DNA of 64,000 nucleotides from Marsupella aquatica (GCA_973895155.1 OZ316891.1:24737899-24801898), one strand, 5' to 3'. Shown: positions 1-28,620, numbered from the stretch's first letter. The notes: generated from the sequence alone by a model not told the origin. Made by a program: numbers and translations.

Positions 1-992
1 GGCCGTGCGCCGCCGGGCCGAAGGAGATTTGTGAGTTCATCTCCAATTTTGACACTGATGCGTCAACCACCAAGGTTTCGGGGCAGACCTTATCACTCAC
101 GGAGCATCGGTTAACGCAAATTTTTGGCCTACCAACCGGGCCGGTGCCAGTGGAAATCCGAATTCGGGATAAGGAGTATACGCCGCGGCACTTCAAACCC
201 GAGGGTAAGACGGACAACGGATACAAGCAGGGGGCGTGCACCAACTTAACCTGTATGGAGCGGCTTAACTTCATACGGACTACCCTACACATGATTGAGC
301 CACGATCCGAGATTTCCCTCTGCACGATAGTGCAGGTGGAACAGTACAAATGACGAAACTGGGCCCAATTCTTCTACTGAAGATTCTCGGGGGAGCTGAA
401 GCGGGCTCAGGGTGGTATGGCTATTGGAGGGAAGACTTACTTGGGGAGTCATATCGCCATTATCCTCGCCTGGTACAAGGCACGATGGGAGGCCAGAGGA
501 AAGAATACGGCCACCTCAGCCCCGGGTAATGACACCCCCGCCCAAGAGGAGGCAACCCCGACTACGCGGACTATTGTCCCTCGGACAAACCCCGAGTCAG
601 AAGCCCCGACTAATACTCCGCAACCGCACCCTGCGGAAATTCCACCGCCTCCTTCCGTTGAGCCTCCGCTACCTGCAGTACAACCACCCCCAATCCCTCC
701 ACCACCTGAAGAAACCTTCCCCTCCCCAGCGCTGACTACGGAGGAGCTCATTGCCCCTGCCGAGGAACCACCGGTACCCGAGAGGATGGAGGACTACCAA
801 GTAGCCCCGGGGACCATGGCCTACGACCTGGTCCAGAAGTTTAGCCAGACTATGTCTGGGGAGTTGGCGACATACATCGGACAACAAGTCTCGGCGTACT
901 TTCAGCCAGCCTTCTTCATGTTAGAGCACCAACCACGGATTGTCTGCCGCTTGGAAGAAGAACTCATGGCGAAGGGGAATGAGATCGGGCGT
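1..992 (+). repeat. Element B 5' LTR, left part (position 1 is about LTR nt 1360)
   Basis: Near-identical to the 3' LTR from 29932; ends at TSD GGCGT (988-992). Confidence 0.95.
3..992 (+). pseudogene. Element B LTR-encoded ORF, 5' copy (nonsense TGA at 351-353; split by element A; continues 21017-21520)
   Basis: ORFs 144..353 and 417..1004 match the 29904..31193 protein; the 3' copy has CGA where this copy has TGA. Confidence 0.9.
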
Positions 993-3900
993 TGTGATGC
1001 CTAGACAGGAATCACTCGGCCGGTTAAGTGGGTAAAGCAGGAAGGCACCCTAGGAACACCTTAGTATAGTGACAAAACAAGGAAAATATAAACAATTAGG
1101 GGCAACCATGGAACCCGGGCCGAGGCCGGAGGTAAGGCTGAGGGTGAAAACCCGATTAGGGTTAGGGCGCGTTAAGCGTCGGCGGCTAGGAAGGATCAAC
1201 GGGAAGAAGGACCGGCAGAGGAGAGGGGTAAGGAGCGCTTGCAGGAGATGGTGGCTCATTTGCGAGCACGAACTAGGCAGACGACTACGGGAGGCCAACT
1301 ACTATCAGCTGCTTAGGCAAGCACTCGGGGAGAGAATTGATACCGACGATCGACCTAAGGAGGGTATGAGCAACGTCAATCAAGCGGCACATTTCTGGGG
1401 ATGCCTGTTCGAACGGGCAACTGAGTACATCAAGACTTACGAGGATGAGGAGTCAGAAAGGGCAGCTCGAGAACGGCAAGAGCTCGCTCGATTGTGGGAG
1501 CTGCAGAAGACGGCTTTCTTAGGAGGCGAACTCATCAAGGACGAGTTCCTGTGGACGCCTACTTCCAATCAACTCGACGATCTTCTGTTTTGCAAAGACA
1601 GCGTCGTCGGCATCCGAGAGGCCATCAAGAACTGCAACGACATACACTGGGAATTAAAGGGTAGCACGGAAAGGTGGACCCGGGCAACGGTGCTAGGAGA
1701 AACCTCCACGGCAGCAGAGATGAAGAGGAAGGGAGCCATCAACGATGAAGCCACCCCGGCAAAAAGAACAAGGTCGGCGGCACCAAAGAAGCCAGCCGAG
1801 CAGCAGAGCAGGAGGCAGGGAGAAGCCGAAGAGGAGGAGGTCGATCCCATCAAGGCCATTCCAACCAGGGATGACACCTGGAAGGGCTGGGCGGCAACCC
1901 TACCGGTGGGGGTGCAACTACATTTTGCACGGGAGGAGGATGCATGCTTTACGGCCATGCAGACCAAGAAGTACCAAGGCTTCATGGCCGGATCCGGCTT
2001 GGAGGCCTTTGTAAGATTACCATGGCTGAAGCCGGAGGTACCGGAGTCAGACCTATTAGAATTCGTGGGGTCATGGGAACCCGAGACCAATTGCACGAGG
2101 ATATATGGGAAGGATTTCTATCTTACTCCCAAGGTAATTGCCGAAGTGTTTGGCCTGCCGATAGGCAATAAGACCAAAGTTGATACCAGGAAGACCTTGC
2201 CTGACAAGGAGTTCCGGTCGTTCCCCGGGCCATCAACGAAGAATGGCTTCTTCCGGAACACCTGCACCAACCCGCACATAGGAGAGATGATCGACTTCTT
2301 GCGGGTGACCATGCATTGTAACTTGCCGAGGGCAGAGATTGGCAAGGCACAGGTCTATCTGGCAGAAAGGCCAGACCCAAGTCGGGACTACAACGGGTAC
2401 CTCCTCAACCAATTGAAGAAGATCTTAAAGGAGGAGCAACAGGTAATCGGCATGGGGAGCGTGTCGTGGCTTGGCTATCACATGCCGCTGTTGTGCCGGT
2501 ATGCCAGAGGTCAGACTTTTGCCCCGGTACTTCCCCTGCAGGTAAGGGCACCCGAGGAAGCTCCAACGCCGAGGCCGTTGGCTGAGAAGCCTCAACCACC
2601 TGTTAGTCCTACGATCGAGCAGGTGTTTAGGCCCAGGAAGGAGGACTTGCCGATGCAGCAACCAGGCATGCAGAGTCTGCTGAAACTACTGGAGAAAGAA
2701 AAGAAATCGGCATCGGCAACAACAACGGCAACGGCAACAATGCAGGACACTACTACAGAGGTAGGCCTACACCGGCTCACAAGAGAAAACCCCTTTGCTG
2801 GAAACAAGGAGAGAATCAGGCCGGAATCCAAGCCAGGTGTTCGAATGTACGTGGGAACCTCAAGCTCCGAATCTGAGGCAGAATTGCCTGAAGCTCCTAC
2901 CGACAAAGAGGAGAGGGAGAAGCCGGACGTCCAAGAGGTAGAGGAGGCAGTGGAGGACTGCAACCATGATAATTCCGGCTATGGGTCGGACCATCACGTT
3001 CCAGGAGTAAGGACCTGTGGCCGGTTTGTCCCCACACTTCCAAGGGTAGTGCGAGGGGACCCCAACCAGCAGAGTAGCCCTGAGTCTCCCCCACCAGATG
3101 TTGCTCCCCCGAGCTTCGACGGCATAAAACAGACGGTGCAGGAATTTCAGGAGCGAATCAAGCAGGAGGAAGAGGCCGCCCTGGCTAAGGAAAAGGATTT
3201 ACCAGGAGGAGATTGGCCGGAGGACATCAGGCGGCTAGCCAAAAAAGGAAGCAAACCTCTAGCCACGATTGAAGAGATCCGCAGGACGGCTTGGGAGCAG
3301 AGGCCACGATGGGCGATGCCGATCACTTCTACTTACTCCACCTACGCTAAGAATAGAGCCATGGAGTATGGTGAGATGTGTGGGGAACTTGCGCTCGGCA
3401 TCTTTGGAGAGGAGTTGGAGGTAGGACCCTTTTTCCATAGGGAGCAGTTGGAGAAGCACCAATTAGAAGAAGCGGTGGCTTTAGAGAGAAGCAAGAAGGA
3501 CGAGGTCATTCGGCGGCTTAGGAGGATGGAAGCCGAGATTGAAGATCTAAGGGCGGCCAAGAAAGCCCAAGATGAACTGCGGATTAAACGACATGAGCTG
3601 AACATCATGCAGGGGCAGTTGGACACCGCGCAGGCTGATAATCAGAATATCAAGGATAAACTAACTCAGACGCAGGAAGAATTGGCCGACACGATCAAAG
3701 AGAGGGAGAAGTGGAAGCAAGAGCTGAAGAATACAGAGGAGGCCCACATAACAGCCAACAGCCGGGCCATGGCGGAGACCCAAAGAAAGGAATGGGCGTT
3801 GAAAGGGGAGCTCGAGAAAATCCGTGGAGCCCTTGAGCAGAAGGAGGTCGAGTTAGGGAAATCCTATCAAGGGATTATGGCGCTGCAGCAGGAGCTTGCG

Positions 3901-5616
3901 TCCCTGACGGCCAGCTTCAAGGCCGACCTAAGGGAGAAGGACGAGATGCTCGAACAGACTTACGCCAAGATGAACCAGATGGAGTCTGTCATCATTGCAG
4001 AGCTCGACAAGGAGCTAAGAGCAACCCAGGAGGAGAGGGCTACCTTGAAGAAGGAATTGGAGGAAGCCCACAGGGAGCAGGAGGAGGCCAAAAACGAGCT
4101 GGAGGGGGCACGTAAGGACCTGGATGAAACCCAAGAGGAGTTGGAGGAAATCACGAGGAAGATGGAGAACCTACAGCGGCGGGCCGGCAACCAAACAGAG
4201 CGGCTAAAGAAACAAGCCGCAGTATTTAAATGCTTAGCTGCAGCAGGTCCATCTCCCATTGGGACAAACCAGTTACCAGGGGTGGTAATTGCCGAAGGAC
4301 AAGCCGCGTCAACTGCACCAGTGCCGGAAGTAAGTGGGAAGGGGAAGGGACCAGCTGCCGAGCCACCAACGAAGAAGAAGCGGAAACCTTCAGGGTCAAG
4401 GAGTAATACGACTTCACAGGCCGTGGTGATCAAGGAGGTAGACCCAGCACCGACCCCAGACAGGGTCACGGCTAAGGATCCAACTACCCTAGGGGAAGGG
4501 GAAGCCGAAGCCGTGGGGGTGGCTGAAGCCGAAGCCGTGGGAGTTGTCGAGGCTGAAGCCAAAGGTGGACCCAGTCAGGCCGATGGAGAGTTGACTCGGT
4601 CAAGGGCAGGTAATCTGTCAGTAGGCGGGCCAACGGCAGTGGCTGAGGAGGAAGTGTTGGGGGCGTCCATTGAGGATCCACCACCGGTGTCGTGACGGTG
4701 CAAGGGCGCCGTTCCTTTTAGGGAGGGCGGACGTGGAGGGAGGAGGCGTGAGTGGGCAGGGCGGGCACGGATCTCCACGTTTAGGATTAGGATCAGAACC
4801 AGGAGCAGCCCTGACACTTAGCTTAGTGGGATTGCGGTCCCACTGGTAGGAGCAACACTTGTGCTCCTGCCTTGCTGTACATAGGTAGATTTGGGCAAGT
4901 AGATTACTGTTAAGTAGATTAGGCTTACGATGCAAAGAATGGCGGATCCACTACCAGGATAAGTACCTGGGCAGCGGGGAGCTCAGGGCCTCTTCTTTAG
5001 CAAGTTTTTAGTTTGCACCAGCCGGGCTGGGATCAAGTAGTACGAGAAGCTCTCGGTTAGTCATACAGTGACCCTTGTGTATATTCATGTTTCCTCATGC
5101 CTAAGAGCTGAATAGAGTTGGCCTCACGGCTTAGTTCGCAGAACTTGTGTATGAGATGTACTGTTTGTATGGCAAGTGCATGGTATGACTCAGTCAGAAT
5201 GAGTCATTTTGCTATTTGTGTGTCGCATTAACTTGTGTGAAGAGTGCCCACATCAACAGAAGGAAGGAAAGTAAGCAGGGGAGTGAGAGTTGGATGTGTC
5301 GAGCTGAGAGAGGTCTTAGCGGCTTAACCAAGCCTATTGGGGATCATTCCGGCGGCGGAATCCAAACATACCTAACAAGACGGAGGGGAAGACAGGGGAA
5401 GACAGGGGAAGGCCTATATTAGGCCGGCTACGTATCTCATGACCCGATGAAGGATCTGTCCAGTATATGTATGTAAAATGTTAATAGTAGTAGTAGAAGG
5501 TTAGCAGCGTCCCATGCCGCTAAGCCGCGGAAACGGCCTCGCCAAGCACGAAACCTGCGGGAACCGGCTTGAGCTGGGGGGTTTCTTGGGTTTAGGGAGC
5601 CATGGGACGCACCACA
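993..5616 (+). repeat. Element A 5' LTR (LTR-A1, 4624 bp, TG...CA)
   Basis: Direct repeat of 11841-16490; followed by a 4-nt spacer and the PBS. Confidence 0.97.
1069..4695 (+). CDS. LTR-encoded accessory protein (up to 1208 aa; real start may be ATG 1108 or 1366): conserved domain, acidic/Pro linker, long coiled coil, basic PPTKKKRK patch
   Basis: Uninterrupted 3.6-kb ORF wholly inside the LTR; motifs GLxxFVRLPW, EF, LTPKVIAEVFGLP, NGFFxxxC shared with ORFs of B, D and E. Confidence 0.85.
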   Translation: MTKQGKYKQLGATMEPGPRPEVRLRVKTRLGLGRVKRRRLGRINGKKDRQRRGVRSACRRWWLICEHELGRRLREANYYQLLRQALGERIDTDDRPKEGMSNVNQAAHFWGCLFERATEYIKTYEDEESERAARERQELARLWELQKTAFLGGELIKDEFLWTPTSNQLDDLLFCKDSVVGIREAIKNCNDIHWELKGSTERWTRATVLGETSTAAEMKRKGAINDEATPAKRTRSAAPKKPAEQQSRRQGEAEEEEVDPIKAIPTRDDTWKGWAATLPVGVQLHFAREEDACFTAMQTKKYQGFMAGSGLEAFVRLPWLKPEVPESDLLEFVGSWEPETNCTRIYGKDFYLTPKVIAEVFGLPIGNKTKVDTRKTLPDKEFRSFPGPSTKNGFFRNTCTNPHIGEMIDFLRVTMHCNLPRAEIGKAQVYLAERPDPSRDYNGYLLNQLKKILKEEQQVIGMGSVSWLGYHMPLLCRYARGQTFAPVLPLQVRAPEEAPTPRPLAEKPQPPVSPTIEQVFRPRKEDLPMQQPGMQSLLKLLEKEKKSASATTTATATMQDTTTEVGLHRLTRENPFAGNKERIRPESKPGVRMYVGTSSSESEAELPEAPTDKEEREKPDVQEVEEAVEDCNHDNSGYGSDHHVPGVRTCGRFVPTLPRVVRGDPNQQSSPESPPPDVAPPSFDGIKQTVQEFQERIKQEEEAALAKEKDLPGGDWPEDIRRLAKKGSKPLATIEEIRRTAWEQRPRWAMPITSTYSTYAKNRAMEYGEMCGELALGIFGEELEVGPFFHREQLEKHQLEEAVALERSKKDEVIRRLRRMEAEIEDLRAAKKAQDELRIKRHELNIMQGQLDTAQADNQNIKDKLTQTQEELADTIKEREKWKQELKNTEEAHITANSRAMAETQRKEWALKGELEKIRGALEQKEVELGKSYQGIMALQQELASLTASFKADLREKDEMLEQTYAKMNQMESVIIAELDKELRATQEERATLKKELEEAHREQEEAKNELEGARKDLDETQEELEEITRKMENLQRRAGNQTERLKKQAAVFKCLAAAGPSPIGTNQLPGVVIAEGQAASTAPVPEVSGKGKGPAAEPPTKKKRKPSGSRSNTTSQAVVIKEVDPAPTPDRVTAKDPTTLGEGEAEAVGVAEAEAVGVVEAEAKGGPSQADGELTRSRAGNLSVGGPTAVAEEEVLGASIEDPPPVS

Positions 5617-5620
5617 TTTT

Positions 5621-5637
5621 TGGCGCTAGATGGAGGG
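5621..5637 (+). other. Primer binding site, probably tRNA-Asn(GUU)
   Basis: TGGCGCTAGATGGAGGG 4 nt after the LTR; 16/17 complementary to the plant tRNA-Asn 3' end as recalled (CCCTCCTTCTAGCGCCA). Confidence 0.8.
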
Positions 5638-5685
5638 GGCATTTCGTAAGCCGTGAGATATGAAGTTAGAACGGAAGCGTAGGTA

Positions 5686-8679
5686 ATGACTGACCTTACG
5701 CCGAGGGAAGAAAGAGTGATTCAACGGGAGAGAGCTCGACTGCAGCAGCTCGCCGGGTGGCATGATACACAGCGACTGAGAGGGGCAGAAAGAGCTGGTA
5801 GCTCCGAAACTGGAAGTGGCGTCGAAGAAGACATACCAGAAGAAGAGTCGGTAAGGAGAAGTGAGTCTCCAACCGACATGGGGGAACCAGAGGCACGGCC
5901 AGACGAGAGGCCAGGGACCAGATTGAGCCAGCGGTCGCGCATACATTACAAGGCATTTCATGGGAGAGGAGATGAGGATCCGGACGAATGGTTGGATGAT
6001 TTCGAGGGAACCGCTGCAGCAAATGGAGAATCGGCCATCAAGATGCAGATTCTTCCCGGCCTGTTCAAGGGTGAGGCTAGGCCTTGGTACAGAGCATTAG
6101 ATGTGGAAGATCAAGCCATCTGGGATATCTTCAAAACACTCTTTGTTAAGGAGTTTCGACCCATTGGAACTTCAGAACTAGCAGTGCTGAAGTTGGGACA
6201 ACTTCGGTTCAAGGAGAACAAATCCTTCAGGAAGTTCTTGCAACGCTTTCAGAAACTGGTAAGACGTACAAAGACCAATGCATCTGAAGGTATGCAACTT
6301 CAATGGTTGGTGAATGCTTTGCCACAGAAGATGAGTTTTGCAATTAGGAAGGAGAACCCGGAGACCTTAGCCGAAGCAATTAAGGATATTCAATTATACA
6401 TTAATGCAGATATCACAAGCCGGAAGAAACAGCTTAAGTCTGAGAGTTCCTCATCAGAGGAGGGATCACCCCATAAGAAAAAAGATAAGAAGAAGAAACA
6501 TTCCAAGAAGTCTAGAAGTGATAAGTCAAGCTCGGATAGTGGGAGTAGCAAGAGTGAGTCATCTTCTAGTTCTGAAGAAGAAAAAACTAGGAAAAGGAAG
6601 GGCAGAAGGAGAGGGAAGACGAAAGTCAAGATGGAGGCTAAGCCACCAGATAACATCGTAGCCCTTACCGAGCAACTTAAGGCTATCATTGCAGAGGTAA
6701 AACCAAAGAAGAAGGTAGTACAGGAGGATAGCTCTGTATGGTGTGCCTTATGTTATAAAACCGGACACCATAAAGATGCTTGTCCTAAGCTTAATACTAA
6801 TCATGTTCGGCATGTGGCCGAGATCAGACCATGTCAGGGAGAAGTAGAGTACTTTTTGGGAGATGCCGCTGATAGTGTTTTCGGCATCAGTGAGACTGGA
6901 GCACGAGACCTATCCAACAGACCTGCATCTCTGTGGTCAGGGTTAAGGAACAATCCAGGAGAGATGTATCCTCGGATTATTCAGAACCCGTCAGTACCTC
7001 CTAGGCCGAATGTGCAAAGATTTGCGGCGTGCTATAATTGTGGTCAACCTGGCCATTTTGCTAGAGAATGCCCGAATGCACGCAAACAGGGTGATGGACA
7101 ACCAGCTCAGCTATGTATGGGATGCCGACAGGAAGGTCATATGCTAGGTCAATGTCCTACTTGGTTGGCAGGCCTGGCCGCAAATCATAAGCTTTTGCCG
7201 ATCAAGATCTTACCGCCAGGTACTACCCCCGGAGGAGTTCAAATCAACCACATCGAACTAGGATGGCAAGAGGATGCCGAGGCAGAGTTCGTACCATCTG
7301 ATGATGAGGCTGAAGCCCTATCAACCTTCTCAGAGGAGGATTTAGATCATGATTGCTACCGGGTCTCTACTCGATCTACCAGAAGGAAGGAAAGGTGGGA
7401 TGGGCTGGCCAAAAATAAAGGGAAGGTTACGGAGGAAAGGATCGACTCTTCGTCAACATCAACAGAAGGAGAAGGGAGGGCTCCGGCAATACAGGTAAGC
7501 CATGAGCCCACCAGTGAAACCAATCCTTCACAAGATAGCGACTTCAATCGAGATCATCCTAAGTTGTTCTACCCCTCTGTTACGGCTAGTGTTAAGGAAC
7601 AACTAAGAGAATTAGAAACCCTGGAGAATACCGAAGCCATTGCCAAGGATGTAAAACGAGCAAAAGCATTGTTTGCTTCAGAAGACCCAACAGCTGTGGA
7701 GACTAGCGTGGCAAAACTGGCCGAATCCAAGACGGAAACACCACCAGAAGAGAAGCCGATTGTTCCCTATGACCTGGCTAAAGATGTACTAGAATCTAGA
7801 GTCTCGGCAACAGTAGGTCAACTATTGAAAAATAGCCCGTACTTCCGGAAGCAATTAAGGAAGGCTATTCTCGGCAAGCCGAGATTACCCAAGGTAGCAA
7901 CCAGATCCGACGTACTAATGATAGAAGAAGATCAAGGAGCCCCAGCATTACCATTAATGATTCAAGGAGAATTATTACTACGGGTACCCATCGATGGAGG
8001 ATCAGGGGTATGTATTATGATTGATTCAACAGCAAAAGGGTGGGGTCTAACACCGGAGATGACTGGAAGAGTGTTGAACATGGCCAATGGATATCAGGTC
8101 ATTCCGACGGGAGTGTTAACCGGCATCAAGATAGAGATAGGAGGTATCTTCTTTAGCATTAACTATGTAGTAATGAAGCCGGTAAATCCTATGTCATTCC
8201 GGCTATTGATTGGTAGGCCATGGCTGTACCTAGCCGAGGTAATAGAAGATTGGGGTAAAAAGCAGTTCACTTTCGGGACCCCCTCTATCACGGTATCCTG
8301 GGACACTAAGGATGACCGTAGGAAAAGCATAAGGGAAGTAGATGGGTACGATAGTGGACTGGAGTCAGCCGATGAAGTACGTTGGTTAGAATGCTTCACT
8401 AACCTAACCGAAGAAGGTGTCTTTGGACCAGAGGTACCCCCCAGCGGATTATGGCAAGAACCAATGGAAGGTGACTTGGAAGAAGAAGACGAAGAGGTCG
8501 AGGACTGCTTTACAATAGAATCCACCTTTTTAGCTGCAATTCCGGAGGAAGTTAAGGATGTAGACCAATTGGATGAGACGGCTAAGTGGGGAGCAGTAGC
8601 AGGGACAGTGGATTTTCTGCAGGCGTTGTGGCAGAGCCGACGGGGTCCACAACGCCATCGATCATCGGCAAGGAATTAA
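5686..8679 (+). CDS. gag: Gag-protease polyprotein (capsid, Ser/Lys-rich linker, three CCHC knuckles, aspartic protease)
   Basis: FHGRGDEDPDEWL capsid start; CALCYKTGHHKDAC, CYNCGQPGHFAREC, CMGCRQEGHMLGQC; protease VPIDGGSG...LLIGRPWL. Confidence 0.93.
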   Translation: MTDLTPREERVIQRERARLQQLAGWHDTQRLRGAERAGSSETGSGVEEDIPEEESVRRSESPTDMGEPEARPDERPGTRLSQRSRIHYKAFHGRGDEDPDEWLDDFEGTAAANGESAIKMQILPGLFKGEARPWYRALDVEDQAIWDIFKTLFVKEFRPIGTSELAVLKLGQLRFKENKSFRKFLQRFQKLVRRTKTNASEGMQLQWLVNALPQKMSFAIRKENPETLAEAIKDIQLYINADITSRKKQLKSESSSSEEGSPHKKKDKKKKHSKKSRSDKSSSDSGSSKSESSSSSEEEKTRKRKGRRRGKTKVKMEAKPPDNIVALTEQLKAIIAEVKPKKKVVQEDSSVWCALCYKTGHHKDACPKLNTNHVRHVAEIRPCQGEVEYFLGDAADSVFGISETGARDLSNRPASLWSGLRNNPGEMYPRIIQNPSVPPRPNVQRFAACYNCGQPGHFARECPNARKQGDGQPAQLCMGCRQEGHMLGQCPTWLAGLAANHKLLPIKILPPGTTPGGVQINHIELGWQEDAEAEFVPSDDEAEALSTFSEEDLDHDCYRVSTRSTRRKERWDGLAKNKGKVTEERIDSSSTSTEGEGRAPAIQVSHEPTSETNPSQDSDFNRDHPKLFYPSVTASVKEQLRELETLENTEAIAKDVKRAKALFASEDPTAVETSVAKLAESKTETPPEEKPIVPYDLAKDVLESRVSATVGQLLKNSPYFRKQLRKAILGKPRLPKVATRSDVLMIEEDQGAPALPLMIQGELLLRVPIDGGSGVCIMIDSTAKGWGLTPEMTGRVLNMANGYQVIPTGVLTGIKIEIGGIFFSINYVVMKPVNPMSFRLLIGRPWLYLAEVIEDWGKKQFTFGTPSITVSWDTKDDRRKSIREVDGYDSGLESADEVRWLECFTNLTEEGVFGPEVPPSGLWQEPMEGDLEEEDEEVEDCFTIESTFLAAIPEEVKDVDQLDETAKWGAVAGTVDFLQALWQSRRGPQRHRSSARN

Positions 8680-11600
8680 ATACCAAGGGATCGGCATACA
8701 AGCCGATTACGAGGGCAGAACAAATTGAGGCCCTATTAGAAGCCGAGAAAGCACAGCGGCCTAACTCTCAGGAGCAAGAGGTGGATGAGATGGACAGACA
8801 CGATCCAGAGCCAAGGCAGGAAGGGGAGCCGACCACTAATTCAAAACCGAATAGACCGGTAAGGGGACAATCTATGGACACCAAGGAAGGGACCGACTCG
8901 GCTAGTCCAGCCGAGATCCCAGTTTATGGAGGTATGAGATTAGAGAGACTGGAAGCCGAACTGGACCCGAATTTGAAGAAGCAGATTAATATGATCCAAG
9001 CACGGCAATATCGGAAGCTCGACTTAGGAGAGGGAAGAGAACTGAACTTAGGGAGAAACCTAGCACCTGAGCTCGAGAAAGAGATCAGTGACTTATTGAT
9101 TGAATTTCAGGATGTGTTTGCATGGACTCACCAAGATCTAAAGGGCGTAGATCCAACACTAGGGGAACATCGAATTGATCTCATGTTAGGAGCCAAATCA
9201 TTTCGACAACCAATTCGAAGGATGAACCCGAAGTATTCCCTGCTGGTCAAAACAGAAATCGACAAACTAGTGGAAGCTGGATTCATCACTCCAGTCCTGC
9301 ATTCAGACTGGGTGTCTCCAATTGTGATAGTTCCCAAGAAAGCTGGACCCGATGGTAAACCCAAGATCCGGGTTTGTCAGGATTACAGGAAGCTGAATGA
9401 AGCAACATTAAAAGACCATTTTCCTTTACCGTTTACTGATATGGTACTAGACATGGTAGCCAGTCATGAACTATATTCATTCATGGATGGATACTCTGGT
9501 TATAACCAAATCAGGATTCGGCAGGAAGACCAAATCAAGACGGCCTTCATCACGAAATGGGGGATCTATGTCTTCAATCGTATGTCGTTTGGACTCTGCA
9601 ACGCACCAGCTATGTTCCAACGATTAATGGTGAACATTTTTCATGATTACTTGAGAAAGTTCATGGAAATCTTCATTGATGACTTTGCAGTATTCGGGAA
9701 GGCATCCAAACATGCTAAATACCTCAGGAAAACCTTCATGAGATGTAGGGAGGTGGGTCTCAAGTTACACCCAGATAAATGTTTTTTTGCAGTAACCGAG
9801 GGGGTGCTACTAGGTCACAAGGTATCAAGGAAGGGCATTGAGATTGACAAAGGTAAGCTAGCAGTATGGCTAGATATCATGCAACCTAAGAACATAAAGG
9901 ATGTAAGATCCTTCTTGGGATGCATTGGTTACTATCGCCGGTTCATCAAGGATTTTGCCAAGCTAGCTTTACCATTAACCAATATGCTCAAGGCAGGAGC
10001 AGACTTCGAACCCACACCCGAACGAGTCACAGCGGTGGTAGAATTGAAGCAGATGTTAGTAGAGGCCCCAGTCATGATAGCACCGGACTGGAACAAAGAT
10101 TTTCATGTTTTTGTAGATGTCTCGGGCTTCTGTATTGGCTCAGTACTAAGTCAGTTGGATGAGAAAGGAAGGGACCATCCCATATACTTCGCAAGCCGTC
10201 AGCTTGCCGATGCCGAACGGAACTACTCTACCACGGAAAGAGAAGCATTAGGAGTCATTTATTCTTGTAAAAAGTTTAGGCATTATTTACTAGGGTACAA
10301 GGTAATCTTTCATACTGATCATGAAAGTTTGAAGTACCTAGTCAATAAGCCGGACCTTACAGGCAGAGTAGCAAGATGGATTTTGCTATTACAGGAGTTT
10401 GACTATGAGCTGAGGATCAAGCCAGGAAAGTTACATGCCAATGCCGACTTCTTTTCAAGGATCACAGGTAAACCTGCCACGGATTGCATCGATGATCGAT
10501 TCCCCGACGAGGAGCTATTCATTGTGGAAATAGCTGGTACATGGTACCCTGAGATTTTACAATTTCTCAGCACTTCCAGATTACAGCCAGGATTAAGCCG
10601 AGAGCAAGCCGCAGTCTTTGTGCGGAAGGTCAGACAGTATCAGTGCATTAAAGGCATACTGCACAAGCATGGAATCAACGGCACGATTCAAAGGTGTTTG
10701 GAGAAGAGAGAGGTAAAACGAGTCCTACGGGCCATGCATGGAGAGGAGGCTGGAGGACATTTTGCCCCAGTAACCACGTCTAAGAAGATATTAAATGCCG
10801 GTTACTGGTGGCCCACCTTGCACAAAGATGTCTATCAGTTTATCAAACAATGCGATCCTTGTCAACGAGCGGGAGGACCAAGGGCGTCCACCAGGCATCC
10901 ACTGCACCCTATTCTACCTCTGGCACCATTCGAGAAGTGGGGTATTGATTACATTGGACCTCTGAAACCACTGACCCACCCTCGACGGAACAAGTACATA
11001 ATCCTGGCTACGGATTATGCAACTAAATGGGTAGAGGCCAGACCAACAACGAAGGATGATGCAATTACTACGGCTAGATTCATGTATGAGCAGATCTTCA
11101 CCAGGTATGGAGCACCCCTAGAATTAGTTAGTGATAGAGGAACCCATTTTTTGAATGATATAATTAGTCGTTTAAATGAGCAGTATTTAGTTAAACATAG
11201 GCCTACTACTCCCTACCATCCAAAGGCAAACGGGTTGACAGAACGAGCAAACGGAATCATAGGAAAGATATTGAACAAGACAGTAGCTCAGAACAAACTC
11301 GATTGGGATGATAAATTGTTTGCTGCTGTTTTTGCTTACAATCTGGCCTATAAATCCACTACCGGTCATACACCCTTCTTCTTAACCTTTGGACAAGAAG
11401 CCCTGGTACCCATGCAACTTGAGATACCGACATTTCAAGTTACAATTGAGGAAAGAGCCTCAGCGGAGGAGAGCCTAAAGGAGCGAGAATATAGGTTAGA
11501 AGCTTTAGAGGAAGCGAGAATGATTTCAGCCGAGAGAGTAGAATATAGACAGAATATCATGAAGCAGCAGTATGATAAAAGGTTAAAAGTAGTTAGTATT

Positions 11601-11852
11601 CATACCGATGATCTTGTGCTACTTTATGACAGTAGGTATAGTAGGTTTCCAGGAAAGCTTTACACTCGCTGGTTAGGACCCTTTAGAGTAACCATGATGT
11701 TCCCCAATGGCTCCGTGCAATTGGCCAACATTACGGGAGAGGTATATCCAGTTCGCATCCATTATGACCGCCTCAAGAAATACTATATGGACGAAGATGA
11801 AGTTGTTCGCGAGGACGCTTCACAATTAAGTGGGGAGCTATGTGATGCCTAG
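8586..11852 (+). CDS. pol: Pol (RT-RNase H-integrase), -1 frame relative to gag-PR; intact
   Basis: RT CQDYRKLN, MDGYSGYNQI, FIDDF; RNase H DVSG...EREALG...TDH; integrase HHCC, WGIDYIGP, SDRGTHF, GLTERAN; no chromodomain or extra RNase H seen; stop lies 12 nt inside the 3' LTR. Confidence 0.95.
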   Translation: MGSSSRDSGFSAGVVAEPTGSTTPSIIGKELNTKGSAYKPITRAEQIEALLEAEKAQRPNSQEQEVDEMDRHDPEPRQEGEPTTNSKPNRPVRGQSMDTKEGTDSASPAEIPVYGGMRLERLEAELDPNLKKQINMIQARQYRKLDLGEGRELNLGRNLAPELEKEISDLLIEFQDVFAWTHQDLKGVDPTLGEHRIDLMLGAKSFRQPIRRMNPKYSLLVKTEIDKLVEAGFITPVLHSDWVSPIVIVPKKAGPDGKPKIRVCQDYRKLNEATLKDHFPLPFTDMVLDMVASHELYSFMDGYSGYNQIRIRQEDQIKTAFITKWGIYVFNRMSFGLCNAPAMFQRLMVNIFHDYLRKFMEIFIDDFAVFGKASKHAKYLRKTFMRCREVGLKLHPDKCFFAVTEGVLLGHKVSRKGIEIDKGKLAVWLDIMQPKNIKDVRSFLGCIGYYRRFIKDFAKLALPLTNMLKAGADFEPTPERVTAVVELKQMLVEAPVMIAPDWNKDFHVFVDVSGFCIGSVLSQLDEKGRDHPIYFASRQLADAERNYSTTEREALGVIYSCKKFRHYLLGYKVIFHTDHESLKYLVNKPDLTGRVARWILLLQEFDYELRIKPGKLHANADFFSRITGKPATDCIDDRFPDEELFIVEIAGTWYPEILQFLSTSRLQPGLSREQAAVFVRKVRQYQCIKGILHKHGINGTIQRCLEKREVKRVLRAMHGEEAGGHFAPVTTSKKILNAGYWWPTLHKDVYQFIKQCDPCQRAGGPRASTRHPLHPILPLAPFEKWGIDYIGPLKPLTHPRRNKYIILATDYATKWVEARPTTKDDAITTARFMYEQIFTRYGAPLELVSDRGTHFLNDIISRLNEQYLVKHRPTTPYHPKANGLTERANGIIGKILNKTVAQNKLDWDDKLFAAVFAYNLAYKSTTGHTPFFLTFGQEALVPMQLEIPTFQVTIEERASAEESLKEREYRLEALEEARMISAERVEYRQNIMKQQYDKRLKVVSIHTDDLVLLYDSRYSRFPGKLYTRWLGPFRVTMMFPNGSVQLANITGEVYPVRIHYDRLKKYYMDEDEVVREDASQLSGELCDA
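8610..8669 (+). other. Predicted -1 ribosomal frameshift signal: G GAT TTT plus stem-loop/pseudoknot
   Basis: Heptamer 8610-8616 phased correctly in the gag frame within the overlap; GGCGTTGTGG (8622-8631) pairs with CCACAACGCC (8647-8656); loop GCCGA pairs with TCGGC (8665-8669). Confidence 0.75.
11826..11840 (+). other. Polypurine tract of element A
   Basis: TTAAGTGGGGAGCTA immediately before the TG of the 3' LTR. Confidence 0.85.
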
Positions 11853-14800
11853 ACAGGAATCACTCGGCCGGTTAAGTGGGTAAAGCAGGAAGGCACCCTA
11901 GGAACACCTTAGTATAGTGACAAAACAAGGAAAATATAAACAATTAGGGGCAACCATGGAACCCGGGCAGAGGCCGGAGGTAAGGCTGAGGGTGAAAACC
12001 CGATTAGGGTTAGGGCGCGTTAAGCGTCGGCGGCTAGGAAGGATCAACGGGAAGAAGGACCGGCAGAGGAGAGGGGTAAGGAGCGCTTGCAGGAGATGGT
12101 GGCTCATTTGCGAGCACGAACTAGGCAGACGACTACGGGAGGCCAACTACTGTCAGCTGCTTAGGCAAGCACTCGGGGAGAGAGTAGATACCGACGATCA
12201 ACCTAAGGAGGGTATGAGCAACGTCAATCAAGCGGCACATTTCTGGGGATGCCTGTTCGAACGGGCAACTGAGTACATCAAGACTTACGAGGACGAGGAG
12301 TCAGAAAGGGCAGCTCGAGAACGGCAGGAGCTCGCTCGATTGTGGGAGCTGCAGAAGACGGCTTTCTTAGGAGGCGAACTCATCAAGGACGAGTTCCTGT
12401 GGACGCCTACTTCCAATCAACTCGACGATCTTCTGTTTTGCAAAGACAGCGTCGTCGGCATCCGAGAGGCCATCAAGAACTGCAACGACATACACTGGGA
12501 ATTAAAGGGTAGCACGGAAAGGTGGACCCAGGCAACGGTGCTAGGAGAAACCTCCACGGCAGCAGAGATGAAGAGGAAGGGAGCCGTCAACGATGAAGCC
12601 ACCCCGGCAAAAAGAACGAGGTCGGCGGCACCAAAGAAGCCAGCCGAGCAGCAGAGCAGGAGGCAGGGAGAAGCCGAAGAGGAGGAGGTCGATCCCATCA
12701 AGGCCATTCCAACCAGGGATGACACCTGGAAGGGCTGGGCGGCAACCCTACCGGTGGAGGTGCAACTACATTTTGCACGGGAGGAGGATGCATGCTTTAC
12801 GGCCATGCAGACCAAGAAGTACCAAGGCTTCATGGCCGGATCCGGCTTGGAGGCCTTTGTAAGATTACCATGGCTGAAGCCGGAGGTACCGGAGTCAGAC
12901 CTATTAGAATTTGTGGGGTCATGGGAACCCGAGACCAATTGCACGAGGATATATGGGAAGGATTTCTATCTTACTCCCAAGGTGATTGCCGAAGTGTTTG
13001 GCTTGCCGATGGGCAATAAGACCAAAGTTGATACCAGGAAGACCTTGCCTGACAAGGAGTTCCGGTCGTTCCCCGGGCCATCAACGAAGAATGGCTTCTT
13101 CCGGAACACCTGCACCAACCCGCACATAGGAGAGATGATCAACTTCTTGCGGGTGACCATGCATTGTAACTTGCCGAGGGCAGAGATCGGCAAGGCACAG
13201 GTCTATCTGGCAGAAAGGCCAGACCCAAGCCGGGACTACAACGGGTACCTCCTCAACCAATTGAAGAAGATCTTAAAGGAGGAGCAGCAGGTAATCGGCA
13301 TGGGGAGCGTGTCGCGGCTTGGCTATCACATGCCGCTGTTGTGCCGGTATGCCAGAGGTCAGACTTTTGCCCCGGTACTTCCCCTGCAGGTAAGGGCACC
13401 CGAGGAAGCTCCAACGCCGAGGCCGTTGGCTGAGAAGCCTCAACCACCTGTTAGTCCTACGATCGAGCAGGTGTTTAGGCCCAGGAAGGAAGACTTGCCG
13501 ATGCAGCAACCAGGCATGCAGAGTCTGCTGAAACTACTGGAGAAAGAAAAGAAATCGGCATCGGCAACGACAACGGCAACGGCAACAATGCAGGACACTA
13601 CTACAGAGGTAGGCCTACACCGGCTCACAAGAGAAAACCCCTTTGCTGGAGACAAGGAGAGAATCAGGCCGGAATCCAAGCCAGGTGTTCGAATGTACGT
13701 GGGAACCTCAAGCTCTGAATCTGAGGCAGAATTGCCTGAAGCTCCTACCGAGGAAGAGGAGAGGGAGAAGCCGGAAATCCAAGAGGTAGAGGAGGCAGTG
13801 GAGGACTGCAGCCATGATAATTCCGGCTATGGGTCGGACCATCACGTTCCAGGAGTAAGGACCTGTGGCCGGTTTGTCCCCACACTTCCAAGGGTAGTGC
13901 GAGGGGACCCCAACCAGCAGAGTAGCCCTGAGTCTCCCCCACCAGATGTTGCTCCCCCGAGCTTCGACGGCATAAAACAGACGGTGCAGGAATTTCAGGA
14001 GCGAATCAAGCAGGAGGAAGAGGCCGCCCTGGCTAAGGAAAAGGATTTACCAGGAGGAGATTGGCCGGAGGACATCAGGCGGCTAGCCGAAAAAGGAAGC
14101 AAACCTCTAGCCACGATTGAAGAGATCCGCAGGACGGCTTGGGAGCAGAGGCCACGATGGGCGATGCCGATCACTTCTACTTACTCCACCTACGCTAAGA
14201 ATAGAGCCATGGAGTATGGTGAGATGTGTGGGGAACTTGCGCTCGGCATCTTTGGAGAGGAGTTGGAGGTAGGACCCTTTTTCCATAGGGAGCAGTTGGA
14301 GAAGCACCAATTAGAAGAAGCGGTGGCTTTAGAGAGAAGCAAGAAGGACGAGGTCATTCGGCGGCTTAGGAGGATGGGAGCCGAGATTGAAGATCTAAGG
14401 GCGGCCAAGAAAGCCCAAGATGAACTGCGGATTAAACGACATGAGCTGAACATCATGCAGGGGCAGTTGGACGCCGCGCAGGCTGATAATCAGAATATCA
14501 AGGATAAACTGACTCAGACGCAGGAAGAGTTGGCCGACACGATCAAAGAAAGGGAAAAGTGGAAGCAAGAGCTGAAGAATACAGAGGAGGCCCACATAAC
14601 AGCCAACAGCCGGGCCATGGCGGAGACCCAAAGAAAGGAATGGGCGTTGAAAGGGGAGCTCGAGAAAATCCGCGGAGCCCTTGAGCAGAAGGAAGTCGAG
14701 TTAGGGAAATCCTATCAAGGGATTATGGCGCTGCAGCAGGAGCTTGCGTCCCTGACGGCCAGCTTCAAGGCCGACCTAAGGGAGAAGGACGAGATGCTCG

Positions 14801-16490
14801 AACAGACTTACGCCAAGATGAACCAGATGGAGTCTGTCATCATTGCAGAGCTCGACAAGGAGCTAAGAGCAACCCAGGAGGAGAAGGCTACCTTGAAGAA
14901 GGAATTGGAGGAAGCCCACAGGGAGCAGGAGGAGGCCAAAAACGAGCTGGAGGGGGCACGTAAGGACCTGGATGAAACCCAAGAGGAGTTGGAGGAAATC
15001 ACGAGGAAGATGGAGAACCTACAGCGGCGGGCCGACAACCAAACAGAGCGGCTGAAGAAACAAGCCGCAGTATTTAAATGCTTAGCTGCAGCAGGTCCAT
15101 CTCCCGTTGGGACAAACCAGAAACCGTTGGGGTGGTAATTGCCGAAGGACAAGCCGCCCCACCTGCACCAGTGCCGGAGGTAAGTGGGAAGGGGAAGGGA
15201 CCAGCTGCCGAGCCACCAACGAAGAAGAAGCGGAAACCTTCAGGGTCAAGGAGTAATACGACTTCACAGGCCATGGTGATCAAGGAGGTAGACCCAGCAC
15301 CGACCCCAGACAGGGTCACGGCTAAGGATCCAACTACCCTAGGGGAAGGGGAAGCCGAAGCCGTGGGGTTGGCTGAGGCTGAAGCCGTGGGGGTGGCTGA
15401 AGCCGAAGCCGTGGGAGTTGTCGAGGCTGAAGCCGAAGGTGGACCCAGTCAGGCCGATGGAGAGTTGACTCGGTCAAGGGCAGGTAATCTGTCAGTAGGC
15501 GGGCCAACGGCAGTGGCTGAGGAGGAAGTGTTGGGGGCGTCCAATGAGGATCCACCACCGGTGTCGTGACGGTGCAAGGGCGCCGTTCCTTTTAGGGAGG
15601 GCGGACGTGGAGGGAGGAGGCGTGAGTGGGCAGGGCGGGCATGGATCTCCACGTTTAGGATTAGGATCAGAACCAGGAGCGGCCCTGACACTTAGCTTAG
15701 TGGGATTGCGGTCCCACTGGTAGGAGCAACACTTGTGCTCCTGCCTTGCTGTACATAGGTAGATTCGGGCAAGTAGATTACTGTTAAGTAGATTAGGCTT
15801 ACGATGCAAAGAATGGCGGATCCACTACCAGGATAAGTACCTGGGCAGCGGGGAGCTCAGGGCCTCTTCTTTAGCAAGTTTTTAGTTTGCACCAGCCGGG
15901 CTGGGATCAAGTAGTACGAGAAGCTCTCGGTTAGTCATACAATGACCCTTGTGTATATTCATGTTTCCTCATGCCTAAGAGCTGAATAGAGTTGGCCTCA
16001 CGGCTTAGTTCGCAGAACTTGTGTATGAGATGTACTGTTTGTATGGCAAGTGCATGGTATGACTCAGTCAGAATGAGTCATTTTGCTATTTGTGTGTCGC
16101 ATTAACTTGTGTGAAGAGTGCCCACATCAACAGAAGGAAGGAAAGTAAGCAGGGGAGTGAGAGTTGGATGTGTCGAGCTGAGAGAGGTCTTAGCGGCTTA
16201 ACCAAGCCTATTGGGGATCATTCCGGCGGCGGAATCCAAACATACCTAACAAGACGGAGGGGGAGACAGGGGAAGACAGGGGAAGGCCTATATTAGGCCG
16301 GCTACGTATCTCATGACCCGATGAAGGATCTGTCCAGTATATGTGTGTAAAATGTTAATAGTAGTAGTAGAAGGTTAGCAGCGTCCCATGCCGCTAAGTC
16401 GCGGAAACGGCCTCGCCAAGCATGAAACCTGCGGGAATCGGCTTGAGCTGGGGGGTTTCTTGGGTTTAGGGAGCCATGGGACGCACCACA
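11841..16490 (+). repeat. Element A second LTR (LTR-A2, 4650 bp)
   Basis: Full copy of 993-5616, TGTGATGCC...GCACCACA. Confidence 0.97.
11917..15569 (+). pseudogene. LTR-encoded ORF, LTR-A2 copy, frameshifted near 15121 (1073 aa plus a C-terminal fragment)
   Basis: ACCAGAAACCGTTGGGG here versus ACCAGTTACCAGGGG in the other copies (+2 nt). Confidence 0.85.
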
Positions 16491-19400
16491 GTAAGGCTGA
16501 GGGTGAAAACCCGATTAGGGTTAGGGCGCGTTAAGCGTCGGCGGCTAGGAAGGATCAACGGGAAGAAGGACCGGCAGAGGAGAGGGGTAAGGAGCGCTTG
16601 CAGGAGATGGTGGCTCATTTGCGAGCACGAACTAGGCAGACGACTACGGGAGGCCAACTACTGTCAGCTGCTTAGGCAAGCACTCGGGGAGAGAATTGAT
16701 ACCGACGATCGACCTAAGGAGGGTATGAGCAACGTCAATCAAGCGGCACATTTCTGGGGATGCCTGTTCGAACGGGCAACTGAGTACATCAAGACTTACG
16801 AGGACGAGGAGTCAGAAAGGGCAGCTCGAGAACGGCAGGAGCTCGCTCGATTGTGGGAGCTGCAGAAGACGGCTTTCTTAGGAGGTGAACTCATCAAGGA
16901 CGAGTTCCTGTGGACGCCTACTTCCAATCAACTCGACGATCTTCTGTTTTGCAAAGACAGCGTCGTCGGCATCCGAGAGGCCATCAAGAACTGCAACGAC
17001 ATACACTGGGAATTAAAGGGTAGCACGGAAAGGTGGACCCGGGCAACGGTGCTAGGAGAAACCTCCACGGCAGCAGAGATGAAGAGGAAGGGAGCCGTCA
17101 ACGATGAAGCCACCCCGGCAAAAAGAACGAGGTCGGCGGCACCAAAGAAGCCAGCCGAGCAGCAGAGCAGGAGGCAGGGAGAAGCCGAAGAGGAGGAGGT
17201 CAATCCCATCAAGGCCATTCCAACCAGGGATGACACCTGGAAGGGCTGGGCGGCAACCCTACCGGTGGAGGTGCAACTACATTTTGCACGGGAGGAGGAT
17301 GCATGCTTTACGGCCATGCAGACCAAGAAGTACCAAGGCTTCATGGCCGGATCCGGCTTGGAGGCCTTTGTAAGATTACCATGGCTGAAGCCGGAGGTAC
17401 CGGAGTCAGACCTATTAGAATTCGTGGGGTCATGGGAACCCGAGACCAATTGCACGAGGATATATGGGAAGGATTTCTATCTTACTCCCAAGGTAATTGC
17501 CGAAGTGTTTGGCCTGCCGATAGGCAATAAGACCAAAGTTGATACCAGGAAGACCTTGCCTGACAAGGAGTTCCGGTCGTTCCCCGGGCCATCAACGAAG
17601 AATGGCTTCTTCCGGAACACCTGCACCAACCCGCACATAGGAGAGATGATCGACTTCTTGCGGGTGACCATGCATTGTAACTTGCCGAGGGCAGAGATCG
17701 GCAAGGCACAGGTCTATCTGGCAGAAAGGCCAGACCCAAGCCGGGACTACAACGGGTACCTCCTCAACCAATTGAAGAAGATCTTAAAGGAGGAGCAACA
17801 GGTAATCGGCATGGGGAGCGTGTCGCGGCTTGGCTATCACATGCCGCTGTTGTGCCGGTATGCCAGAGGTCAGACTTTTGCCCCGGTACTTCCCCTGCAG
17901 GTAAGGGCACCCGAGGAAGCTCCAACGCCGAGGCCGTTGGCTGAGAAGCCTCAACCACCTGTTAGTCCTACGATCGAGCAGGTGTTTAGGCCCAGGAAGG
18001 AGGACTTGCCGATGCAGCAACCAGGCATGCAGAGTCTGCTGAAACTACTGGAGAAAGAAAAGAAATCGGCATCGGCAACAACAACGGCAACGGCAACAAT
18101 GCAGGACACTACTACAGAGGTAGGCCTACACCGGCTCACAAGAGAAAACCCCTTTGCTGGAAACAAGGAGAGAATCAGGCCGGAATCCAAGCCAGGTGTT
18201 CGAATGTACGTGGGAACCTCAAGCTCCGAATCTGAGGCAGAATTGCCTGAAGCTCCTACCGAGGAAGAGGAGAGGGAGAAGCCGGACGTCCAAGAGGTAG
18301 AGGAGGCAGTGGAGGACTGCAGCCATGATAATTCCGGCTATGGGTCGGACCATCACGTTCCAGGAGTAAGGACCTGTGGCCGGTTTGTCCCCACACTTCC
18401 AAGGGTAGTGCGAGGGGACCCCAACCAGCAGAGTAGCCCTGAGTCTCCCCCACCAGATGTTGCTCCCCCGAGCTTCGACAGCATAAAACAGACGGTGCAG
18501 GAATTTCAGGAGCGAATCAAGCAGGAGGAAGAGGCCGCCCTGGCTAAGGAAAAGGATTTACCAGGAGGAGATTGGCCGGAGGACATCAGGCGGCTAGCCA
18601 AAAAAGGAAGCAAACCTCTAGCCACGATTGAAGAGATCCGCAGGACGGCTTGGGAGCAGAGGCCACGATGGGCGATGCCGATCACTTCTACTTACTCCAC
18701 CTACGCTAAGAATAGAGCCATGGAGTATGGTGAGATGTGTGGGGAACTTGCGCTCGGCATCTTTGGAGAGGAGTTGGAGGTAGGACCCTTTTTCCATAGG
18801 GAGCAGTTGGAGAAGCACCAATTAGAAGAAGCGGTGGCTTTAGAGAGAAGCAAGAAGGACGAGGTCATTCGGCGGCTTAGGAGGATGGAAGCCGAGATTG
18901 AAGATCTAAGGGCGGCCAAGAAAGCCCAAGATGAACTGCGGATTAAACGACATGAGCTGAACATCATGCAGGGGCAGCTGGACACCGCGCAGGCTGATAA
19001 TCAGAATATCAAGGATAAACTGACTCAGACGCAGGAAGAATTGGCCGACACGATCAAAGAGAGGGAGAAGTGGAAGCAAGAGCTGAAGAATACAGAGGAG
19101 GCCCACATAACAGCCAACAGCCGGGCCATGGCGGAGACCCAAAGAAAGGAATGGGCGTTGAAAGGGGAGCTCGAGAAAATCCGCGGAGCCCTTGAGCAGA
19201 AGGAGGTCGAGTTAGGGAAATCCTATCAAGGGATTATGGCGCTGCAGCAGGAGCTTGCGTCCCTGACGGCCAGCTTCAAGGCCGACCTAAGGGAGAAGGA
19301 CGAGATGCTCGAACAGACTTACGCCAAGATGAACCAGATGGAGTCTGTCATCATTGCAGAGCTCGACAAGGAGCTAAGAGCAACCCAGGAGGAGAGGGCT

Positions 19401-28600: not shown

Positions 28601-28620
28601 GAACCCAGGTCGTAGATTAG
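22617..28620 (+). pseudogene. gag-pol: Element B single-frame gag-PR-RT-RH-INT polyprotein, disabled (TGA 22860-2, TAG 28296-8, frameshift near 28390)
   Basis: 22617..22862 and 23049..28298 share a frame; three CCHC knuckles, VPIDGGSG, FIDDF, WGIDYIGP; C-terminus VREDASHLSGELCD is in a shifted frame. Confidence 0.92.
28558..28572 (+). other. PPT of element B
   Basis: TTAAGTGGGGAGCTA before TGTGAC. Confidence 0.85.

Follow-up and report, generated by a model that had tools for sequence, protein, structure and literature searches.

Giant long terminal repeats carrying a gene for a predicted VANC21-like protein in three Ty3 retrotransposon families of Marsupella aquatica

Can a plant retrotransposon's long terminal repeat (LTR) hold a gene of its own? 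The question is raised by a 64,000-nucleotide stretch of Marsupella aquatica DNA (GCA_973895155.1 OZ316891.1:24737899-24801898; hereafter the window), which contains four Ty3 elements designated A, B, D and E. In A, B and D, one open reading frame (ORF) accounts for 65–78% of the LTR, an architecture that breaks the rule of non-coding plant LTRs; the longest stop-free frame in 300 shuffles per LTR was 302 aa for A and 308 aa for D. In E, a homologous ORF lies between pol and a much shorter 3′ LTR. We lean, with reserve, to the reading that the gene of A, B and D moved into the U3 region of the LTR once and that its product is a VANC21-like, DNA-binding anti-silencer of its own family. Coordinates are collected in Table 1.

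Element A is nested within the ORF of the 5′ LTR of element B, as read from the window sequence. Its LTR opens at 993 (TG) and closes at 5616 (CA), and self-comparison of the window showed that the segment 993–5616 is repeated at 11841–16490 with 98.1% identity and, without its first 139 bp, at 16491–21011 with 98.4% identity. The CTA-TG that follows the polypurine tract (PPT) of A opens the second LTR copy, and the PPT-CTA-TG junction is near-identical in A, B and D, standing each time at the start of the long repeat. A preliminary description of this locus, made from the sequence alone, had delimited the LTRs of all three families by TG..CA ends, PPT, primer-binding site (PBS) and target-site duplications (TSDs). 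The ends, PPT and PBS hold for A, B and D, but a TSD is visible for A only, because the 5′ end of B and the 3′ end of D lie outside the window. The further claim that pol runs straight into the 3′ LTR is borne out by the pol stop of A, which lies inside the 3′ LTR, and by the PPT at the end of pol in A, B and D.

An alternative is that the LTRs are ordinary short ones and that local duplication or faulty assembly produced the long repeats around them, a suspicion fed by the odd third tandem copy of the A LTR, by the B and D TSDs being beyond view and by the fact that no one public contig spans element A. However, the TSD of A abuts the TG at 993, and the PPT-CTA-TG junction opens the long repeat in all three families, with no PPT at the start of the tail, the part of the LTR behind the ORF. 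Depth was read over positions 700–11900 in four public runs as medians of nine ORF, two tail and fifteen internal bins, four boundary bins being excluded; it is summed contig depth, not copy number. The ratio of ORF to internal median depth for the A LTR was 4.1, 3.3, 2.6 and 2.5 in the four runs, and that of tail to internal depth was 3.4, 4.7, 4.3 and 2.0, so that ORF depth tracks the tail and not gag-pol in all four; a ratio of more than 2 may indicate additional LTR copies. One contig of public run X6 departs from the window sequence at 992, at the LTR start. The differences between LTR copies are mostly transitions in CG/CHG context, which fits real, methylated copies rather than assembly error. 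With the TSD at the full A unit and ORF depth like that of the tail in every run, short true LTRs with a local duplication are unlikely, the outcome that the preliminary description had named as fatal to its proposal. The giant gene-bearing LTR is almost certainly real and the artefact explanation very improbable indeed. It follows from an ORF inside true LTRs that the gene is duplicated at each replication, as had been proposed.

What does the LTR-borne gene encode? The results showed that a core of about 200 aa is common to the A, B and D proteins (24–40% identity; BLASTP A–D 2e-19, A–B 8e-19, B–D 1e-41), which upholds the shared, ordered domain described earlier across the three families. 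Synonymous sites between the families are saturated or nearly so and the protein is conserved; judged from these sequence comparisons, the between-family conservation shows long-term constraint on the ORF. The claim of a complete gene in each LTR stands for the 5′ copies of A and D, which are intact, but not for B, both of whose copies carry in-frame stops. The other copies are also damaged: the middle copy of A is frameshifted, its third copy has lost the first ATG, and the 3′ copy of D is split by E. The B ORF had been placed from 28941, which is not an ATG; the first Met of its frame is at 29124. The window LTR-ORF proteins gave no Pfam match except to coiled-coil families. No membrane segment was found, the top 19-residue hydropathy being 0.91, 1.18 and 1.13 for A, B and D, and identity as an envelope (env) protein was ruled out on this ground. 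An N-terminal region of about 120–150 aa is conserved in D (38576–38990) and B (29124–29600) and recurs in relatives P0012, P0157, P0032, P0071 and P0148, with no family match.

Comparison of LTR copies within the window was less informative on selection. Raw dN/dS between copies was 0.37–0.63, but it was rejected as evidence of selection, since a context-matched null gave p 0.046 for the 5′ against the 3′ LTR of A only and p 0.059 for the pool. The pooled synonymous excess (41/100) is borderline, a point against our reading, though expected if changes between the LTRs of one element are mostly post-insertion. For the same reason, the dN/dS near 1 proposed earlier as a refutation is an unfair test when read between an element's two LTRs. 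A figure of 12/18 synonymous variants (p 0.02) came from a selected subset, 40 of 643 variant rows, and was set aside.

How did a gene come to lie inside the LTR? The ORF of E matches the LTR ORFs of A, B and D with pairwise E values of about 1e-4 to 1e-3, and profile–profile comparison gave probability 99.0 and E 4e-18, the two sets coming from one joint search and not being fully independent. The 14-mer PPT of E occurs twice in the window, once on either side of this ORF. Extra PPTs in the linker between pol and the LTR are described in Athila4 and Calypso, and upstream PPTs without an attachment end in Sireviruses (PMC2829016; here and below, what is attributed to the literature refers to the parts of the papers available to us). 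In a quick reverse transcriptase (RT) tree of 44 rows, for which the fuller search is incomplete, A, B and D form one clade with two Calypogeia fissa rows and one further row (SH-aLRT 100), and E falls outside. E is likely to represent the ancestral state and A, B and D the derived one, both in one window. The pol-proximal PPT is the one in use in A, B and D, which also fall into a single RT clade, so that a single origin of the giant LTRs is probable, through a PPT switch by which the gene was drawn into U3.

The ancestor would have been E-like, in the order pol, PPT, ORF, PPT, short LTR. Its upstream PPT would have gained a correct CTA-TG end and taken over plus-strand priming; linker, ORF and old LTR would then have become the new LTR, and reverse transcription would have copied this to both ends. 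The terminal 0.9–1 kb would be the old LTR, retaining the genomic start and poly(A) site, and the tail of the A LTR may be such a remnant. That LTR DNA differs between families, as stated in the preliminary description, is mostly right, but these tails (899–982 bp in A, B and D) have short blocks in common. Three points weigh against a PPT switch. A relic of the distal PPT was not detected in the A, B and D tails (best p 0.13, 9 comparisons); the tails showed no clear homology to the E LTR, with one 22-bp match; and the polarity rests on one comparator, on literature on angiosperm Athila and on the quick RT tree, the careful search being incomplete.

A giant R region would make the PPT switch unnecessary. 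By this account, the gene was inserted into R and a TATA box in the LTR head starts both RNAs, poly(A) addition in the 5′ tail yielding the accessory mRNA and read-through the genomic RNA. The order in D (TATA, CT-rich leader, ORF, TGTA/TGTG-rich block, end) fits a long R equally well, which tells against our reading; this layout presumably resembles that of a usual plant LTR into which an ORF has been placed. The tails, moreover, have neither TATAAA nor a relic PPT. However, a giant R leaves unexplained both the two identical PPTs around the homologous ORF of E and the pol-proximal PPT of A, B and D, and it requires minus-strand strong-stop DNA of about 4 kb and gag translation behind an ORF of 900–1200 codons. 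We consider it quite unlikely.

The structure of the core gave a specific lead to the function of the protein. The AlphaFold model of the D core had a pLDDT of 93.6, and the top-ranked Foldseek match was the crystal structure of VANC21 bound to DNA (probability 0.99, TM 0.52, E 0.014), the next match having probability 0.03. VIA gave Z 8.3 between the D model and VANC21 (206 aligned, root-mean-square deviation [rmsd] 4.1; next Z 2.3). For the E core model (pLDDT 90.2), VIA gave Z 7.4 (194 aligned, rmsd 4.1; next 2.4). The core of about 200 aa is thus predicted from these models to have the VANC21 DNA-binding fold. VANC21 counters silencing in a sequence-specific manner, and the short motifs that it targets form arrays in non-coding parts of its own transposon (PMC5735166).

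Sequence searches placed the protein less sharply. A profile search gave 143 matches, and among ten clusters looked up, the three with a species name were all from Calypogeia fissa, a liverwort. Kinship with Transposase_32 (PF20167) and PF10536 had been suggested in the preliminary description. A distant link to PF20167 remains, 11 of 102 aligned members matching weakly at E 0.05, although 82 relatives reached at most 34 bits for PF20167, the curated cut-off being 45 bits, and none of the four window domains matched at E 10; no PF10536 match was found in the window proteins, nor in the 82 relatives at E 0.01. PF09331 (DUF1985) matched neither the window proteins nor the 82 relatives. Matches in the ESM Atlas scored 0.81–0.84 and are weak leads, the named ones being DUF1985, Transposase_32, ATHILA and the plant mobile domain (PMD; PMD clusters 0.81). 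Word-index protein searches with the A domain (602 candidates) and the D N-terminal region (199 candidates) yielded nothing, sequence searches of the PDB returned coiled-coil matches only, and a viral structure library gave nothing at E 0.001. Metagenome scans gave no locus with the PBS pattern and 18 loci with the PPT pattern, none of the 18 with Ty3 gag/pol or the core domain.

Non-coding DNA of the elements contains short motifs that are candidate targets of the protein. All 12 GACGCT-N5/6-AGCGTC palindromes of the window lie within the LTRs, leader and linker of E, which are non-coding, and GACGCT occurs 15 times in E non-coding DNA against 0.49 expected. The LTR heads and tails of A, B and D (4009 bp) contain 16 copies of ATTAGG, always on the sense strand, and their ORFs (8460 bp) contain none (pooled corrected p 5e-7), the enrichment being significant in no single family. 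As read from the sequence, the arrays fit the VANC model, with the palindrome as a strong, element-specific candidate target in E and the shared ATTAGG as a weaker one in A, B and D.

On these grounds we incline towards a VANC-like anti-silencing role for the LTR-borne protein, as modelled on VANC21. Basic patches would serve nuclear import and the predicted coiled coil oligomer formation, no membrane segment being predicted; the protein would bind the short motifs arrayed in the non-coding DNA of its family and lower silencing marks in trans. Several findings pull the other way. The match to VANC21 is at 7–10% identity and rmsd 4.1, with a Foldseek E of 0.014 for D, and VANC21 was absent from the Foldseek listing for the E model. 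The window proteins have no sequence match to PF20167, PF10536 or PF09331. ATTAGG is common to all three families and may be a host-factor site, and we take it to resemble a telomere-type repeat. VANC, finally, resembles the PMD of the host MAIN/MAIL proteins (PMC13547354; bioRxiv 2024.09.27.615353), and with the fold shared in this way, fold alone is no proof of function.

A protein with the PMD/VANC fold could indeed have another job, such as chromatin tethering of integration, binding of a host partner as in MAIN/MAIL, or RNA packaging. The low identity and the rmsd leave room for this, the models cover the core only and not the N-terminal domain, linker or coiled coil, and the nesting of these elements in one another could reflect targeting; direct DNA binding of PMD-C proteins is stated as not yet shown (bioRxiv 2024.09.27.615353). 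Yet the element-specific palindrome arrays in E non-coding DNA are what the VANC model predicts, and the sole solved structural match is a DNA-bound anti-silencer. Another job is a lesser possibility, and we retain the anti-silencing role as our working interpretation.

From which copy would the gene be expressed? A TATA box in the LTR head would let 5′ and solo LTRs express the ORF, and such expression is a serious possibility that we stop just short of favouring, going by promoter-like sequence. The TATA is clear in D only, where a canonical TATAAAAA stands 108 nt before the ATG; the TATAAA of A is very near its ATG, and no clear one stands out in B. In addition, the D head looks like a splice acceptor, its pyrimidine tract ending in TAG 23 nt before the ATG, which counts against a stand-alone promoter; the tract may be a promoter leader or a splice acceptor. 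With a TATA and an acceptor-like tract in one head, a stand-alone LTR promoter and a spliced RNA of the 3′ copy are both possible.

If the latter is the case, expression is confined to the 3′ LTR copy, by way of a spliced subgenomic RNA, and the PPT switch has left the 5′ and solo copies behind as silent by-products. Because the 3′ copy is the template for U3 in both LTRs, conservation needs no 5′ expression; selection cannot separate stand-alone LTR expression from expression of the 3′ copy only. Besides the D tract and the lack of a clear TATA in B, a similar acceptor-like tract in the E linker (about 54984–54964) speaks for 3′-only expression. Acceptors are predicted in Athila and BAGY2 (PMC2829016), and spliced RNA has been proposed for Athila-type ORFs. 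The TATAAAAA of D and the TATAAA in the A head argue against it, and the A head is without a pyrimidine tract. We regard expression restricted to the 3′ copy as unlikely.

A bolder proposal unites these points: the LTR would be a self-contained anti-silencing cassette of promoter, VANC-fold gene, terminator and target motifs, 5′ and solo LTRs would free the family in trans, and the 'env-like' ORFs of Athila type would be VANC-like anti-silencers, a role present in early land plant retroelements. We put this forward tentatively and consider it rather doubtful as a whole.

The assignment of the four elements to Ty3 rests on their domains and ends. Pfam searches showed gag, protease, RT, RNase H and integrase in Ty3/gypsy order in A, B, D and E, plus a CCHC motif in A, the protease match being weak in A and E. 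LTRs with TG..CA ends, a PBS and a PPT are present, and 5-bp TSDs were found for A and E. No chromodomain match was found in the window proteins of A, B, D or E, and no second RNase H family match in their pol, which leaves them outside Tat in the strict sense; liverwort Tat Z2 elements are also described without the additional RNase H (PMC13468544). The nearest named RTs are from the liverworts Calypogeia (67–69%) and Riccia (53–59%), and angiosperm rows follow at 39–51%, three of them with PF20167. Together with the Calypogeia fissa clusters, these RTs make a liverwort host likely.

Table 1. Features of elements A, B, D and E in the window (positions counted from its first nucleotide; a dot marks a feature without strand)
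Feature	Position	Strand	Details
Element A (Ty3), whole insertion	993..21011	+	TSD GGCGT at 988-992 and 21012-21016
A 5′ LTR	993..5616	+	4624 bp; TG..CA
TATAAA in A LTR head, putative function	1087..1092	+	21 nt upstream of first ATG; next Met 1366
A LTR ORF	1108..4695	+	1195 aa, intact; N-terminal region, basic patch, core, low-complexity linker, long predicted coiled coil, basic patch
A core domain	1870..2520	+	homologous to D domain; VANC21-like fold inferred from homology
A LTR tail	4696..5616	+	921 bp; TGTA/TGTG-rich block; conserved box 5347-5374; ATTAGG copies
A PBS	5621..5639	+	the 19-mer recurs unchanged in B (22520) and D (42130)
A gag and pol	5683..11852	+	gag 5683-8679; pol 8586-11852
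A PPT	11826..11838	+	overlaps pol end
A 3′ LTR copy	11841..16490	+	ORF frameshifted
Third, tandem A LTR copy	16491..21011	+	without first 139 bp; most similar to 5′ LTR
B 5′ LTR, left visible piece	1..992	+	ORF stops at 351 and 378; resumes 21017-22502
B PPT	28558..28570	+	pol end
B 3′ LTR	28573..32409	+	3837 bp; TG..CA, PPT, PBS
B LTR ORF, from first Met	29124..31427	+	frame open from 28845, interrupted by stops at 29853 and 31191
D 5′ LTR	38110..42117	+	4008 bp; TG..CA, PPT, PBS
D head, putative function	38468..38552	+	TATAAAAA at 38468, then pyrimidine tract ending in TAG at 38535-38552
D LTR ORF	38576..41218	+	880 aa, intact
D core domain	39473..40135	+	AlphaFold pLDDT 93.6; top structural match VANC21 (9LNJ/9LNK)
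D PPT	48190..48202	+	pol end
D 3′ LTR	starts 48205	+	interrupted by E after 50192, resumes near 63677-63682, runs off window
Element E	50193..63676	-	1358-bp LTRs (2 differences); TSD ACGAA; gag, pol, internal accessory ORF
Four GACGCT-N5/6-AGCGTC palindromes, E 3′ LTR	51145..51347	.	candidate target of E protein
Further GACGCT-N5/6-AGCGTC palindromes	63271-63473; 54897-54942; 61419-61465		4, 2 and 2, respectively
E terminal PPT	51553..51566	-	identical 14-mer; then TA-TG and 3′ LTR
E accessory ORF	52117..54762	-	flanked by pol and 3′ LTR; in-frame stop 53563-53565; relative P0001 matches both halves
E core domain, homologous	54073-54705	-
E pol-proximal PPT copy	55036..55049	-	25 nt past pol stop; without CTA-TG end after it

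Further observations concern the LTRs themselves. Private differences among the A LTR copies number 40 in the middle copy against 20 and 18 in the others (chi-square p 0.003), and the closest pair is the outer copies, the 5′ LTR and the truncated third, with 38 differences. The tandem arrangement suggests that a second A-family element inserted into the A 3′ LTR at about 140 bp and that recombination within the shared head came next; public run X2 has weak joints that lead from 5616 into the A LTR again, which would fit self-insertion. Between the terminal CA and the PBS lie 4 bp in A (5617–5620), 17 bp in B (22503–22519) and 12 bp in D (42118–42129), a long gap for a tRNA-primed element. The tails of A, B and D contain a conserved box (5347–5374, 32211–32238 and 41934–41962), 155–245 bp before the LTR 3′ end, in which a TTCC-GGCGGC-GGAA-like hairpin is followed by ATACCTA, with AATAAA within that of B; its sequence makes it a candidate RNA 3′-end or promoter element.

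Element E is very young, with two differences in 1358 bp, yet has in-frame stops at 58047–58049 (gag/pol) and in the accessory ORF; read-through and a defective parent are candidate explanations. Its PBS is unlike that of A, B and D. Between its accessory ORF and terminal PPT lies a 162-aa frame (51628–52116, minus strand) that by eye resembles an aspartic-protease fragment and had no Pfam match at E 0.01.

In the neighbouring sequence, a truncated, inverted A-family pol copy (32410–35632, minus strand; 94.6% to A, dN/dS 0.16) directly follows the B 3′ LTR, and B appears to have inserted near the pol end of that inverted copy. An Ulp1/SUMO protease frame (35804–36631, minus strand; Peptidase_C48, E 1.5e-21) lies near a 91-bp tandem repeat (37186–37419) and a 218-aa frame (37475–38131, minus strand). 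The three are probably part of a DNA transposon that was entered by D and by the A-like fragment.

The function of extra ORFs in plant Ty3 elements is described as an open question (PMC7264820, PMC6317226). A specific structural lead in VANC21, intact natural ORFs and a named candidate motif make it testable in vitro. Were the anti-silencing role true, every new copy would receive two copies of a likely anti-silencing tool, and solo-LTR formation, normally a host inactivation, would leave a counter-silencing gene behind. If the PPT reading is true, a single switch can turn an LTR into one of 4.6 kb. Such elements would be annotated wrongly by tools that set short LTR limits, and gene finders would take LTR ORFs for host genes, which may apply to the Calypogeia fissa proteins.

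Among known systems, the sense accessory ORFs of Athila/Calypso type (aORF-3S, 'env-like') are alike in lying behind pol in Ty3 elements, non-chromoviruses in those papers and without a chromodomain match here (PMC7264820, PMC6317226, PMC11728184, PMC2829016), in the distant PF20167 match (11/102 members) and in the extra linker PPT, as in element E. They differ in that those papers, as far as available, place them in the internal region, whereas here the ORF is inside both LTRs and the window proteins have no transmembrane segment and no PF20167 match. In the literature searched, which took in few subscription journals and no supplements, no plant LTR-internal gene was found, accessory ORFs being internal only (PMC7264820, PMC6317226, PMC11963269, PMC3485330, PMC1142308, PMC11728184); the accessible part of PMC12885004 adds nothing on LTR structure. 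In LTR size, Retrosat2/RIRE3, which has LTRs >3.2 kb and carries an ORF0 upstream of gag-pol (PMC3485330), is comparable, as are non-chromoviruses whose LTRs reach about 5 kb (PMC6317226), but their available descriptions mention no LTR-internal gene, whereas one ORF fills most of the LTR here.

MAIN, MAIL1, MAIL2 and the PMD ORFs of Ogre (PF10536) are related through the structural resemblance of PMD to VANC, and a PMD is reported in the extra ORFs of 57% of Ogre elements (PMC6317226); the present proteins differ in lacking a PF10536 match and in their LTR location. VANC21 of VANDAL21, a Mutator-like DNA transposon (PDB 9LNJ/9LNK), is alike in its fold, predicted here over nearly the whole domain, in the predicted coiled coil, as modelled for VANC21 (PMC13547354), and in short motifs arrayed in non-coding DNA. 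VANCs, however, are described as dicot-specific MuDR genes (PMC13547354), whereas the present genes belong to LTR retrotransposons of a likely liverwort, at 7–10% identity and with no DUF1985 match. The nearest parallel in architecture is the sag/naf ORF in the U3 of mouse mammary tumour virus (MMTV), where the whole ORF lies in both LTRs, possibly with its own upstream promoter (PMC9412291). A whole ORF in both LTRs is likewise found in all three copies of A, and in B and D as far as the window shows. MMTV is a retrovirus with an unrelated protein, whereas the present proteins of 880–1195 aa come from plant retrotransposons in which U3 placement and promoter are putative. The fold family is thus already known, and for a gene carried in an LTR, MMTV sag stands as the precedent (PMC9412291).

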